Shown: in pieces, positions 17,601-23,600 of the stretch
Layout of the letters: each line of letters starts with the position of its first letter
Position numbering within the stretch: position 1 is the stretch's first letter
Assembly (NCBI RefSeq): GCF_022846255.1
Contig: NZ_AP025682.1
Direction: 5' to 3' (one strand)
DNA: 64,000 nt
Origin: Escherichia coli
GTDB lineage: Bacteria > Pseudomonadota > Gammaproteobacteria > Enterobacterales > Enterobacteriaceae
Program-made: the position numbers

Positions 17601-20600
17601 ACTTTTTGCGCCGGTACGTAGCTGCCGATATACGCCATCAGCGCAATCAACGCGGTCTGGCGCATATAGGTACTTTTACCGCCCATGTTCGGACCGGTAA
17701 TGATCAACATGCGACGCTGCGGCGACAGGTTTAGCGGGTTAGCGATAAACGGCTCATTCAGTACTTGTTCAACTACCGGATGGCGACCTTCGGTAATGCG
17801 AATGCCAGGTTTATCAATAAAGGTCGGGCAGGTGTAGTTCAGGGTATAGGCCCGCTCCGCCAGGTTCACCAGCACGTCGAGTTCCGCCAGCGCGCTCGCG
17901 CTCTGTTGCAACGCTTCCAGATGCGGCAACAGCAGGTCGAACAGCTCTTCATAAAGTTGTTTTTCCAGAGCCAGTGCTTTGCCTTTTGAGGTGAGAACTT
18001 TATCTTCGTACTCTTTCAGCTCCGGAATAATGTAACGCTCGGCGTTTTTCAGCGTCTGGCGGCGCATGTAGTTGATTGGTGCCAGATGGCTTTGCCCACG
18101 GCTGATTTGAATGTAGTAGCCGTGCACAGCATTAAAGCCAACTTTTAACGTGTCCAGGCCGGTACGTTCACGCTCGCGGACTTCCAGACGTTCCAGATAA
18201 TCGGTCGCGCCGTCGGCCAGCGCACGCCATTCATCCAGTTCTTCGTTATAACCAGTCGCAATAACACCACCATCGCGTACCAGCACCGGCGGCGTGTCGA
18301 TGATTGCTCGCTCCAGCAGGTCGCGCAGTTCGGCAAACTCGCCCATCTTCTCACGCAGTGCTTGTACCGGGGCGCTATCGACACCTTCCAGTTGCGCGCG
18401 CAGTTCTGGAAGTTGCTGGAAGGCATGACGCATACGGGCCAGATCGCGCGGGCGAGCGGTACGCAACGCCAGACGCGCCAGAATACGTTCCAGGTCGCCC
18501 ACCTGACGCAGTACCGGCTGTAACTCGGCGGTGAAATCCTGCAATGCGCCAATAGTTTGCTGGCGCTCAAGCAACACGCGGGTATCGCGCACTGGCATAT
18601 GCAGCCAGCGTTTCAGCATACGACTACCCATCGGCGTTACAGTGCAGTCGAGTACGGAAGCCAGCGTATTTTCCGCACCGCCGGCCAGGTTCTGAGTAAT
18701 TTCCAGGTTACGACGCGTCGCGGCATCCATAATGATGCTGTCCTGCTGACGTTCCATAGTGATAGAACGAATATGCGGCAGGGTCGTGCGTTGGGTATCT
18801 TTCGCATACTGCAACAGACAACCGGCAGCACAAAGTCCGCGTGGTGCGTTCTCCACACCAAAACCGACCAGATCTCGGGTGCCAAATTGCAGGTTCAATT
18901 GCTGGCGAGCGGTGTCGATTTCAAACTCCCACAGCGGGCGACGACGCAGGCCGCGGCGACCTTCAATCAGCGACATCTCGGCGAAATCTTCCGCATACAG
19001 TAATTCCGCTGGATTCGTACGTTGCAGTTCTGCCGCCATCGTTTCGCGGTCCGCCGGTTCGCTCAGGCGAAAACGACCGGAACTGATATCCAGCGTTGCG
19101 TAGCCGAAACCTTTACTGTCCTGCCAGATAGCCGCCAGCAGGTTGTCCTGACGTTCCTGCAACAGCGCTTCATCGCTGATGGTGCCCGGCGTAACGATAC
19201 GGACAACTTTGCGCTCGACCGGCCCTTTGCTGGTCGCCGGATCGCCAATCTGTTCACAAATAGCAACCGATTCGCCCTGGTTCACCAGTTTGGCGAGGTA
19301 GTTTTCCACCGCATGGTAGGGAATCCCCGCCATCGGGATTGGCTCTCCCGCTGAAGCACCGCGTTTGGTCAGTGAAATATCCAGCAGTTGCGACGCCCGT
19401 TTTGCGTCGTCATAAAACAGTTCATAAAAGTCGCCCATCCGGTAAAACAGCAGGATCTCGGGATGCTGGGCTTTCAGCTTGAGATACTGCTGCATCATGG
19501 GCGTATGGGCGTCGAAATTTTCTATTGTACTCATGGGGTTAAGTCCGGCTCCCTGATGTTAAATGTAGTGTGATGGTTTTTATTTTCGTTGTAATCACAT
19601 AAGGCGCACATGATACCGGAGTTAATCATTTCAGGGGAAGACGCGAAAGGTGAGTTCTTGATGTCGGTTCCGCGAAAAATGCTGCTTTGCAGCTTTTGCG
19701 TGATGACGATGAAACAAGATCGACAAATTCGTCGGTTGAAGAAACCTCCTCCTTCAGAGACATAGTCCCCTTTAAAATTAAGTTGTAATATAAATGCACC
19801 TTAAGAGTATGGAGGCAGCATGTCCGGCAAGCGTATCTCTCGTGAAAAACTGACGATTAAAAAAATGATCGATCTTTATCAAGCGAAATGCCCGCAGGCG
19901 TCAGCAGAGCCGGAGCATTACGAGGCGTTGTTTGCTTACGCGCAAAAGCGGCTGGATAAATGTGTGTTCGGCGAAGAGAAACCAGCCTGTAAGCAGTGTC
20001 CGGTGCACTGTTACCAGCCTGCAAAGCGTGAAGAGATGAAACAGATTATGCGTTGGGCCGGGCCGAGAATGCTGTGGCGTCATCCGATCTTAACCGTGCG
20101 TCATCTCATCGATGACAAGCGTCCGGTGCCGGAGTTGCCAGAAAAATATCGTCCAAAGAAATAAATCTGCCGGAGAGCCATACTCTCCGGCAAATACGGC
20201 GCTTACGCTTTGGTGGCAATCAGGATGGCTGATGCTTTGATCAATGCAATAACGCGCGAGCCAGTGGTGAGTTTCATTTCATCCTGACTTTCATTTGTTA
20301 CCACTGCCACAATTTCAAAACCCGCATCCGTTTTGATATGGACAGTGGCGTTCACTGCGCCTTCGGTGATTGTCGACACGCTGCCAGCAAACTGGTTGCG
20401 AGCAGAGAATTTCAGTCCACAGTCTTCCGTTGCCAGCGTTACCCACGGGGCTTTAATCAGGGCAATCGCTTCTTTCCCTTTCGCCAGACCCAGCGCTTGC
20501 TGGCTGCTGTGAGTCACAATTGCCACCAGCTTTGCACCACCTGCCAGCGTCAGTTCTACTTCGTCATTCACCGCGCCCATTGCTACTGCGCTAACTGTTC

Positions 20601-23600
20601 CGGTTAATTGATTTCTTGCTGAAACTGCCATACTGCCTCCTTTCATTGAATGTTGATCGAGTATAACCACATCTGTTAAATCAATGCCGATTTATCAATT
20701 CCCAGTCGCTTCATTCGTGACAGCAGAGTCGTGCGTTTCAGCCCCAGACGTTGCGCAGCGCCTTTAGGCCCGGCAACCACGCCGTTTGTTTCTTTCAGCA
20801 CGCGAACAATCAACTGATATTCATCTTCGCCCTCCTGGGCGACAACCGTTGCGGCAGGCGGCGTTTCAGGTTCTGGTAAAGCAATATCTGGCAATGACAG
20901 CTGCAGCACGTTGCCGCGTGTTAGCAATACCGCGCGCTCAATGACGTTTTCCAGCTCACGCACGTTGCCCGGCCATTCCATGTTGCTCAGGATGCGCAGC
21001 GTCTCGGCAGGAATGCTGTCGATATTGCGCCCCAGACGACGGGCAATTTTGAAGGTAAAGGCTTTCGCCAGCAGCGGAATATCTTCCGGACGCTCGCGTA
21101 GTGGCGGCAGGTGGATCGGGAATACGTTCAGACGGTAATAGAGATCGCTACGGAACTCTCGGTCGGCGACCATTTTTTTCAGATCGCGGTTAGTCGCGGC
21201 AATTAAACGTACGTCCGTCTGAATGATTTTGTTGCTGCCGAGACGTTCAAACTCCTGTTCCTGTAATACACGCAGCAACTTCGGCTGTAACTCCAGCGGC
21301 ATATCGCCCACTTCATCGAGGAATAGTGAGCTTTTATCCGCCAGTTCAAAACGACCAATGCGCTGAGCGCTGGCACCGGTAAAAGCCCCACGCTCATGAC
21401 CAAATAGATCGCTTTCCAGCAATCCGGCAGGCATCGCCGCGCAGTTCATTTTGACCATACGGCGATTATTACGCCCACTGAGATTATGGATCGCGCGGGC
21501 AATCAGCTCTTTACCTGTACCAGTTTCACCGAGGATCAGAACGGTACTGTCACTTTGCGCCACCATTTCCACTTGTTTAAGTACGCTGTACATGGCTTCG
21601 CTGCGGCCAATAATCTCGCCAAATTCACTATCAACATTGTTGAGCTGCTCGGTCAGGGCGAGGTTTTCATCAACCAGCCGTTCTTTCAGACGATGAATTT
21701 CCTGATAGGCGAGGGCGTTATCGACAGCGATTGCCACACGTTCGGCAATCTGGCGCAGTAAGCTCAGATTGGTAGTGGTAAAGACTTTCTCTTCGCATTG
21801 CGCCAGTTTTAGCACGCCCAGCATGGTGTCGCCAGACATCAGCGGTAACAGGCACAAGGTTTGAATCTGGTTGCCCCAGGTGTTGAACAACATGCGTTCA
21901 TAGGGGGCTAAATCGTCCCGCTCGTGGAGATTAATCAACAGCATCTCTTTACTTTTGAAGACGCGTTCGGTGAGGGTTCCGGCTTCATCGACTTCGCTCT
22001 GTTCGTGAGCGGGATGCTGTTTATCAAGATAGTGAGTGGAGTAGATGTTGAGTTTGTTCTTACGGTGGCTGCGTAAGACGATGCTGATATCGTCAATGTC
22101 GAAGTAGTAGTGGATTTCTTTGGCGACTTCGCTGACCAGTTCGTCCATATCCAGGCGGGAAAGCACCGCGTTAGTGATGGCGACCAGGATGCGGAAGTTA
22201 TCGCGTTCCCGGCATAACAACTCATAGTCGACATTGTTAACGACGCGGCTCTGGATTTGTTCGGTGACGACAGAAACGATCTGCGTAAATGTTTGCAGAC
22301 GATTGAACTCTTTTTCGCTCCAGGGGCGATCGTCATAACGAATAAATTCACAGCCACCAAAAATATGCCCTTCCGCCGCCAGTGGCATCAGGCAATAGTG
22401 ACCAAATTTGGGGTATAGCCCACCTGTGGCCAGCTGCGGCCAGGTTTCACAAAATTCTTCGTAACTGCAATGCAGCGTATCAGGGCGCGACAAAATGCTG
22501 CGTACCGGACCGTGTGCCAGAACAGTTTCGTCTTCATATTTAATGGGGGTGTCTTTTTCACGCGATGCGTAATAAGACGCACGTTGAGTCTGCGCTTGCC
22601 ACAACACAATCGCCGCGTTGTCGGCGAGCGCAGAACGCTTTACCAGTTGCGAAAGAGCCTCACACAGCGAGGCCAGATCGGGCTGCTGCAATAGTGTCCG
22701 AGTGATGTCGAACAACCCTTGCTGTCCGAGATCACTCATCGGTGTATATGACATTTTGTTCTTCCAGGAAAGCACCGCAAAGCGGTGCAAAAGGTCATTG
22801 ACTAACTATAGGAGATTTAGAATTTTATTAGCATATACGCGGAAGCGGTTCGGCGTGCGGTAGATCGAGGGTTCGTTTCACGCCATACAGACCGGCAAGA
22901 CGAACACCTTTACGTTCTACTACTTCGCCAATCAGCGCCGCATCTTTTCCCAATGGATGGGAATGTAACGCCGCCAGCACTTGCTCTGCTGCGTTGCGTT
23001 CAACGGCGATCACCAGTTTGCCTTCGTTGGCAAAGTTAAGGGCGTCCAGTCCCAGCAGTTCGCAAACGCCGCGCACAGCAGGTTTAACCGGCAGTGCCGC
23101 TTCTGAAAGTTCAATACCACAACCGCAGGCTGCCGCGAACTCATGAACCACCGCGTTTACACCACCACGGGTGGCATCACGCAGCGCTTTCACGCCGGGA
23201 ATGTCACGCAGCGTCTGAATAAGCGGCGTCAGCACCGCACAGTCGCTGACCAGTTCGCCATCCAGCCCCAGCTGCTCACGCAGGTTAAGGATAGTCGCCC
23301 CGTGGTCGCCGAGTGTACCGCTAACCAGCAATACATCGCCTGCGGTTAGCGTCTGTGCGCCCCAGTGAATATTCGCCGGAATTGCGCCCATGCCAGCGGT
23401 GTTGATAAACAGTTTATCTGCCGCGCCGCGCTGCACCACTTTAGTGTCGCCAGTAACGATGGCAATGCCTGCCGCGCGGGCGGTTTCTGCCATGCTGGTC
23501 ACAACGGCTTTCAGCGTCTCCATCGGTAATCCTTCTTCAAGGATAAATCCACAGGAGAGATAACGCGGAATAGCGCCACTGACCGCTACGTCGTTCGCGG

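Follow-up and report, generated by a model that had tools for sequence, protein, structure and literature searches.

A conserved gene for a probable ModG-type molbindin beside fhlA in enterobacteria, missing from Escherichia coli K-12

The stretch of Escherichia coli DNA considered here (64,000 nucleotides of contig NZ_AP025682.1, NCBI RefSeq assembly GCF_022846255.1; hereafter the window) carries a small gene between fhlA, which encodes the activator of formate hydrogenlyase (FHL), and ygbA. This gene, referred to here as mop, is genuine and strongly conserved, well beyond anything expected of a chance open reading frame (ORF), and its 142-amino-acid (aa) product has strong support, from sequence and a predicted fold, as a ModG-type molbindin: a protein of two Mop/TOBE domains and no other. 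The gene is found next to fhlA across the Enterobacteriaceae and is missing from K-12. The function that we favour, as probable rather than assured, is that of a cytoplasmic buffer or store of molybdate (and tungstate) that is made with the FHL activator and secures molybdenum for formate dehydrogenase H (FDH-H), the molybdenum selenoenzyme that serves as the formate dehydrogenase of FHL. Oxyanion binding taken alone commands higher confidence than this whole chain of propositions.

The gene and its predicted protein

Set against 15 orthologues, mop has a ratio of nonsynonymous to synonymous substitution rates (dN/dS) of 0.026-0.090; each of the 32 orthologous loci inspected encodes exactly 142 aa, and an alignment of 26 mop proteins from ~15 genera contains 59 invariant columns. 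Over eight genera the dN of mop is approximately that of fhlA (mop versus fhlA: 0.010 versus 0.011 in E. albertii, 0.054 versus 0.057 in Citrobacter amalonaticus, 0.099 versus 0.110 in Klebsiella and 0.126 versus 0.133 in Yokenella). This tracking points to vertical inheritance together with fhlA, under about equal constraint.

The coding sequence occupies 20203..20631 on the minus strand, with its ATG at 20631 and its TAA stop codon at 20203-20205. A longer alternative of 155 aa, starting from a GTG at 20670, has been adopted by some databases. The ATG is preferred because a GGAGG lies 4 nt upstream and the N-terminus that follows, M-x-V-S-A-R-N-Q, is kept in every species aligned, whereas the residues ahead of the ATG are not. 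The Shine-Dalgarno sequence, AAAGGAGG (20636..20643, minus strand; GGAGG core at 20636-20640), has its counterpart in all 32 orthologous loci, where GGAGG, GGAG or GGAGA stands at identical spacing. The original prediction, made from the window's sequence, thus had the ORF coordinates and the strong Shine-Dalgarno site right; its 45 bp from the fhlA stop codon to the start of the gene was essentially right as well (the spacer measures 44 nt), and so was its placement of the ORF convergent with ygbA, which lies on the plus strand 38 nt away. The collinear reference annotation for the window is that of strain SK1144, whose sequence is not identical to it; the RefSeq coding sequence WP_000301062.1 occupies the matching coordinates there. 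The identical protein is found on at least 1000 public contigs.

That the ORF might be a spurious or decaying one, left without function between fhlA and ygbA, is a notion to which we give almost no credence. The gene is, to be sure, missing from two-thirds of E. coli genomes, and at least two independent losses are seen (the K-12-type allele and the O157:H7 strain TR01, both described below). A dN/dS of 0.03-0.09, the invariant 142 aa, the conserved Shine-Dalgarno sequence and 59 invariant residues contradict it; moreover, 1889 of the 1892 E. coli genomes with a match hold the gene over at least 80% of its length.

The protein matches the TOBE family of Pfam (PF03459, E = 8.8e-35) and the Mop model of NCBIfam (TIGR00638, E = 4.1e-42), each in two stretches, those of the latter at residues 2-69 and ~73-140; the domains are placed at residues ~1-68 and ~73-140. 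Among solved structures its top match in sequence is ModG of Azotobacter vinelandii (1h9j), over the full length and with E = 5e-33, followed by the di-Mop domain of E. coli ModE (E ~1e-15) and by Tub and Mop (E ~1e-9). The AlphaFold2 monomer model has a mean predicted local distance difference test score (pLDDT) of 94.2, and the first three Foldseek ranks for this predicted fold are ModG entries, with template-modelling (TM) scores of 0.93-0.94 and a root-mean-square deviation of 1.5 Å; for 1h9j the TM score is 0.94 at 48% sequence identity.

The tungstate ligands of Tub were set out in a 2025 paper, in which type-1 sites are formed by the backbone of A20-V21-N22 and type-2 sites by S4, R6, K60 and A61 with S40 of the neighbouring chain (PMC11980592). 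All of these positions are filled in repeat 1 of the mop protein, which has S4, R6, A20-V21-N22, T40 (where Tub has S40), S43, K60 and A61; repeat 2, at an offset of +72, has S76, R78, A92-V93-N94, T112, S115, K132 and A133. The ligand residues of both repeats, which cover every oxyanion contact known from Tub, Mop and ModE, are invariant or at least 90% conserved among the 26 orthologues. With a full ligand set in both repeats, as in ModG, the protein therefore has the sequence and fold that mark the ModG type, and the stand-alone, tandem-TOBE molbindin of the original prediction is borne out by domain matches, best structural match and ligands alike. A 125-aa variant of the gene product occurs in E. 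albertii CP117575 (locus L015, 5001-5378), in which a 17-residue in-frame deletion takes out K60-A61 and the residues around them in repeat 1; in the type strain of E. albertii the protein is complete at 142 aa.

Like the mop protein, ModG (PDB 1H9J, 1H9K and 1H9M) is a stand-alone di-Mop protein, of 145 rather than 142 aa, and the motifs SARN, GAVN, T-x-x-S and K-A recur in both repeats of both proteins. ModG is a trimer holding eight molybdates; the same is predicted by analogy for the mop protein, which is known here from its sequence and a monomer model. The setting differs: mop belongs to the hyp-fhl cluster, where it comes after fhlA and has neither mod genes nor a ModE operator nearby, and its hosts are non-diazotrophic Enterobacteriaceae. 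Association with mod genes and a ModE operator, which mop does not share, is a trait of the A. vinelandii modG gene rather than of the protein family.

Each mop repeat separately matches the single-domain molbindins Mop (Clostridium pasteurianum and Haemophilus influenzae) and Tub (Eubacterium limosum; PDB 1GUG, 1FR3 and 9BEB for the group), with E ~1e-9, 30-40% identity, a TM score to the target of ~0.9 and equivalent type-1 and type-2 positions. Those proteins are single domains of ~70 aa that form hexamers, whereas the mop chain has two domains fused; identity with a single-domain Mop is rejected for this reason, and a trimer of the fused chain would form an equivalent shell. The TOBE domains of ATP-binding cassette (ABC) ATPases (ModC, MalK, PotA and CysA) have the TOBE beta-barrel fold in common with mop, and the ATPase domain is theirs alone. 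Assignment as ModC or another ABC ATPase was rejected: the ModC and WtpC models are matched in no more than their last ~65 residues, far below their cut-offs, and a protein that lacks the ATPase domain is no transporter.

The C-terminal di-Mop part of E. coli ModE (PDB 1O7L, 1H9S and 1B9M) has the two-domain fold in common with the mop protein, with a TM score of 0.88 and an identity of ~34%. In the alignment S4, R6, T40, S43, K60 and A61 fall on ModE residues S126, R128, T163, S166, K183 and A184, which we take to be molybdate ligands of ModE. Repeat 2 sets the proteins apart: the ligand set is full in the mop protein, and the aligned ModE repeat has ADNQ and no K-A. Identity with ModE was rejected, since the ModE model NF007957, of 263 positions, is matched at 124-261 alone and the score of 88 bits falls short of its cut-off of 369; the protein, at 142 aa against ~260, is not ModE because the N-terminal winged-helix DNA-binding domain is missing. 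Database entries that call mop "transporter", "molybdate transport system regulatory protein" or "modE" therefore misname it.

This kinship with ModE does prompt the question of a regulatory role. The mop protein might be a molybdate-sensing accessory that competes with ModE for free molybdate, and so alters the control that ModE exerts over modABC, moa, hyc and fdhF; alternatively, it might contact FhlA or ModE directly when loaded with molybdenum. The protein has the fold and ligands of the ModE sensor domain; the nearest relatives at ~50% identity, in Burkholderiales and in Vreelandella (Halomonadaceae), correspond to the C-terminal half of complete ModE proteins; mop adjoins a transcription-factor gene with a molybdenum-responsive regulon; and ModG of A. 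vinelandii has been called a homeostasis regulator in an mBio paper. The want of a DNA-binding domain argues against such a role, as does the presence of an equivalent protein away from fhlA in several genera, and no evidence of interaction with FhlA or ModE was found. On balance we regard a regulatory accessory, and the shift in ModE-dependent control that goes with it, as unlikely, and retain buffering or storage as the favoured function.

Alleles in E. coli and distribution across genera

Within E. coli the gene was surveyed in 5426 complete genomes, a carrier being a genome in which the mop locus is matched over at least 80% of its length. There are 1889 carriers (~35%), always with a single, chromosomal copy; 3502 genomes hold a short allele without mop, and ~31 match neither allele. 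No true E. coli plasmid carrying mop was found, two 4.9-Mb "plasmid" matches in PLSDB being mislabelled chromosomes. In carriers the gene is annotated as "TOBE domain-containing protein" (e.g., WP_000301062.1) or as "molybdopterin-binding protein"; thus RefSeq names it generically, and it is not the already well-characterised gene that the original prediction had allowed it might turn out to be. The mop-less allele is that of K-12, BW25113, B strains, typical O157:H7 and O111:H8. In K-12 MG1655 a gap of 36 nt separates fhlA (b2731) from ygbA (b2732). The original prediction, which knew of no annotated gene at this place in K-12, was therefore correct, for a stronger reason than missing annotation: the DNA itself is missing.

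Named carriers among the matches listed are SK1144, O25b:H4-ST131, O2:K2:H1, O102:H6 and ST648; SK1144 has been typed as B2 in a 2025 paper, and IAI39 is a carrier according to the paper that labels the gene "modE". Taken with the phylogroups of such strains, we read this as lineages B2, D and F keeping mop and lineages A, B1 and E being without it, a pattern that comes from a few named strains rather than from a census.

The K-12-type allele is without everything from 2 bases past the fhlA stop codon to ~10 bases before a terminator hairpin. The hairpin itself is retained, following the fhlA stop codon after a few bases and followed in turn by ygbA, and its stem carries a compensatory change between the alleles (GCCGGAcAG / CTgTCCGGC against GCCGGAgAG / CTcTCCGGC). 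Toward its end ygbA is unusually divergent between the alleles, with ~13 substituted positions and a 9-nt indel in the final ~60 nt, so that YgbA has 117 aa in the K-12-type allele and 114 aa in the mop-bearing one. The divergent end of ygbA and the stem change argue that the mop-less allele is old or imported rather than a fresh, clean deletion. The segments compared were 4418-4510 of the K-12 locus (L004) and 20100-20202 of the window. The K-12-type hairpin resembles the one 3' of mop in Citrobacter amalonaticus.

A separate deletion of 466 bp, removing mop and the left arm of the terminator, is present in O157:H7 TR01 (NZ_CP033605.1; locus L002, 3036-3416). It sits in a ~0.4-kb patch of B2 type that comprises the fhlA-ygbA spacer and a 114-aa ygbA; fhlA and mutS are of O157 type. 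The patch could be the product of recombination followed by deletion, or an artefact of assembly. The junction occurs in 1 of the 5426 genomes and was accordingly rejected as the common mop-less allele, which is the K-12-type one.

Outside E. coli, a scan with one genome per species and an orthologue threshold of at least 81% identity found mop in 41 enterobacterial species, in 36 of which fhlA lies immediately upstream (hypE-fhlA-mop). Among these species are E. albertii, a cryptic Escherichia and eight of Citrobacter and Pseudocitrobacter, along with members of Raoultella, Klebsiella, Kluyvera, Pluralibacter, Yokenella, Lelliottia, Enterobacter and Kosakonia. The adjacency was separately confirmed in E. 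fergusonii, E. albertii and Raoultella. Synteny across these genera implies that mop is ancestral in the Enterobacteriaceae and that the K-12 state is a loss, by deletion in the E. coli lineage to which K-12, B, O157:H7 and O111:H8 belong. Recent arrival in E. coli by insertion or on an island was considered and is ruled out by the synteny and by the tracking of dN with fhlA. In Phytobacter diazotrophicus and Kosakonia sp. S29 (loci L049 and L072, ~3865-4430), mop stands 132 nt after hypE with no fhlA between them and with ygbA convergent.

Not every relative keeps company with fhlA. Stand-alone orthologues of ~70% identity lie away from it, in unrelated neighbourhoods, in Hafnia, Edwardsiella, Cedecea, Mangrovibacter, Buttiauxella and Enterobacillus, and so does the Pantoea copy; some Salmonella serovars have an 87-89% identical copy in an island and not at fhlA. 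In Salmonella enterica (loci L005, L006, L011 and L012) the island contains fragments of the insertion sequences IS21 and IS66, a CaiF/GrlA-like regulator and fimbrial usher and chaperone genes, a setting that suggests horizontal movement. Large plasmids of Klebsiella and Enterobacter (160-380 kb) also encode TOBE homologues, 60-79% identical (matches H135-H143).

Neighbouring genes and expression signals

The neighbours of mop are hypABCDE-fhlA on one side and ygbA-mutS on the other. The hydrogenase maturation genes hypABCDE (22828..26445, minus strand, from the collinear SK1144 annotation) begin the hyp-fhlA(-mop) string; fhlA, encoding the sigma-54-dependent activator, follows at 20676..22754 on the same strand (identified as an ORF, in the SK1144 annotation and by tblastn across loci), with its stop codon at 20676-20678. 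The 114-aa form of ygbA (19820..20164, plus strand; ORF and SK1144 annotation) is the convergent neighbour, with which mop shares a terminator hairpin.

The spacer of 44 nt between fhlA and mop (20632..20675, minus strand) was subjected to a terminator scan and to folding: the scan found no terminator-like site in it, and its RNA structure is not significant (fold z-score of -0.48). In other genera the spacer is 36-101 nt long and a hairpin likewise stands 3' of mop. After mop in the window comes an intrinsic terminator (20155..20195, minus strand) with a 14-bp stem, GCCGGAGAG / CTCTCCGGC at its core, and a U-rich tail overlapping the ygbA stop codon; it folds at -23.3 kcal/mol (z = -4.0), with 0 of 200 shuffled sequences as stable. 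The absence of a terminator in the spacer and the presence of a strong one after mop make read-through from fhlA the default expectation. With these signals, and with the adjacency kept in 36 of 41 species, the sequence is consistent with the co-transcription and the FHL link that the original prediction suggested. Thus mop is most likely made together with FhlA, as the 3' end of the hyp-fhlA unit. Two promoters serve that unit: a sigma-54 promoter ahead of hypA, which depends on FhlA and formate, and an FNR-dependent one within the unit.

A -10-like hexamer, TATACT (20660..20665, minus strand), is located 34 nt upstream of the mop ATG, just past the fhlA stop codon. A TATA(C/A)N hexamer occurs at -34, or at -43 to -49, in ~24 of 32 mop loci, at equal spacing in Escherichia, Citrobacter and Pluralibacter and in a TGn-extended form in Klebsiella, Yokenella, E. 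soli and Lelliottia. A consensus scan called no sigma-70 promoter in the spacer, and the E. coli sequence is without a good -35 element; the conserved hexamer is nevertheless a possible promoter of mop's own. The ModE operator (TATAT-N7-TAYAT) has no positional conservation in the 160 nt upstream of mop in 32 loci, and its best matches there are no better than those of shuffled sequences in 29 of the 32. No known RNA family (Rfam) was found at E <= 1 in window positions 19000-23500.

Elsewhere in the window, which differs from SK1144 by small indels in the first kilobases and is closely related to it, the collinear annotation places genes for a flavodoxin-family protein and a metallo-beta-lactamase (MBL)-fold hydrolase between rpoS and ygbN (~8199-10018), unlike K-12. 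Three small ORFs, two of them hypothetical and one encoding a helix-turn-helix protein, lie between hycI and hydN (~34541-35700), the interval in which K-12 has its ascBFG genes. The rpoS gene is intact at 7031-8023 (330 codons ending ...NIEALFRE); the SK1144 copy is annotated as frameshifted.

A function beside the FHL activator

The favoured function can be given a concrete form. By analogy with ModG, three mop chains would form a pseudo-hexameric shell with sites for as many as eight MoO4(2-) or WO4(2-) ions. Two of these would lie on the threefold axis, where the backbone amides of A20-V21-N22 and A92-V93-N94 hold them, and the other six at domain interfaces, contacted by S4, R6, K60 and A61 with T40 of a neighbour, and by S76, R78, K132 and A133 with T112. 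Made with FhlA under fermentative conditions, the protein would buffer or store molybdate for synthesis of the bis-molybdopterin guanine dinucleotide cofactor while FDH-H is produced. Gene reality, ligand conservation, synteny and distribution are observed, as is the fold in its predicted form; assembly into an oligomer, binding of oxyanions, joint transcription with fhlA and the connection to FDH-H are what we infer from them. Maximal expression of fdhF and hyc needs ModE together with FhlA and formate (PMC3149613). A position beside fhlA is thus a sensible one for a molybdate-binding protein, because the FHL regulon senses molybdate through ModE (PMC3149613).

Several considerations weigh against this proposal; for its FHL-specific part the chief ones are the active FHL of K-12 and the copies kept away from fhlA in related genera. 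The -10-like element hints at a separate promoter, so that expression of mop need not follow that of fhlA. There are no mod genes and no ModE operator near mop, unlike the case of A. vinelandii modG. Copies of mop away from fhlA indicate that the protein can function outside the FHL context. K-12, the strain on which the study of FHL was built, has active FDH-H although it lacks mop, which must therefore be dispensable under laboratory conditions. A literature search found no binding, expression or phenotype work on the enterobacterial mop protein.

The choice of oxyanion is a further matter. Molbindins bind both molybdate and tungstate, and Tub, with an equal ligand set, stores tungstate in vivo; gut species with a predicted use of tungsten commonly have ModG-type architectures; and tungstate poisons enterobacterial molybdoenzymes in the gut (PMC6781011). 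The main role of mop might accordingly be to sequester tungstate, which is present in the gut, and so to keep FDH-H and other molybdoenzymes from being mis-metallated there. The sequence features do not discriminate tungsten from molybdenum, and what speaks against a tungstate sink is that Enterobacteriaceae have no known need for tungsten, that no tupABC genes lie nearby and that the FHL-linked position favours supply over defence. We judge this role improbable beside that of a molybdate buffer serving FDH-H.

A bolder idea, which we offer as a long shot, is that mop is an ancestral molybdate-sensing partner of FhlA, acting by contact of its molybdenum-loaded form with FhlA or by gated delivery of molybdate to cofactor synthesis for FDH-H. 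If it were so, FHL would be induced only when the molybdenum cofactor can be made; in the K-12 lineage this link would be gone, leaving dependence on ModE alone. Carriers (extraintestinal pathogenic E. coli of groups B2, D and F, Klebsiella and Citrobacter) would then differ from K-12 in their molybdate economy and in their sensitivity to tungstate treatment.

The family to which the protein belongs is well known, in fold and chemistry too, and RefSeq annotates the gene generically. The literature search found no study of enterobacterial mop and no statement of its conserved linkage to fhlA; one paper noticed the gene, naming it "modE", and a 2020 review of molybdoenzymes in pathogens makes no mention of molbindins. 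What has been learned of FHL and of molybdenum homeostasis in enterobacteria comes almost wholly from K-12, a strain without mop, whereas the gene is present in ~35% of complete E. coli genomes and in most sampled species of Citrobacter, Klebsiella, Raoultella, Kluyvera, Enterobacter and Kosakonia. If mop does buffer molybdate or tungstate, it may affect anaerobic fitness when molybdate is scarce, the maturation of FDH-H, signalling through ModE and the response of gut Enterobacteriaceae to tungstate therapy.

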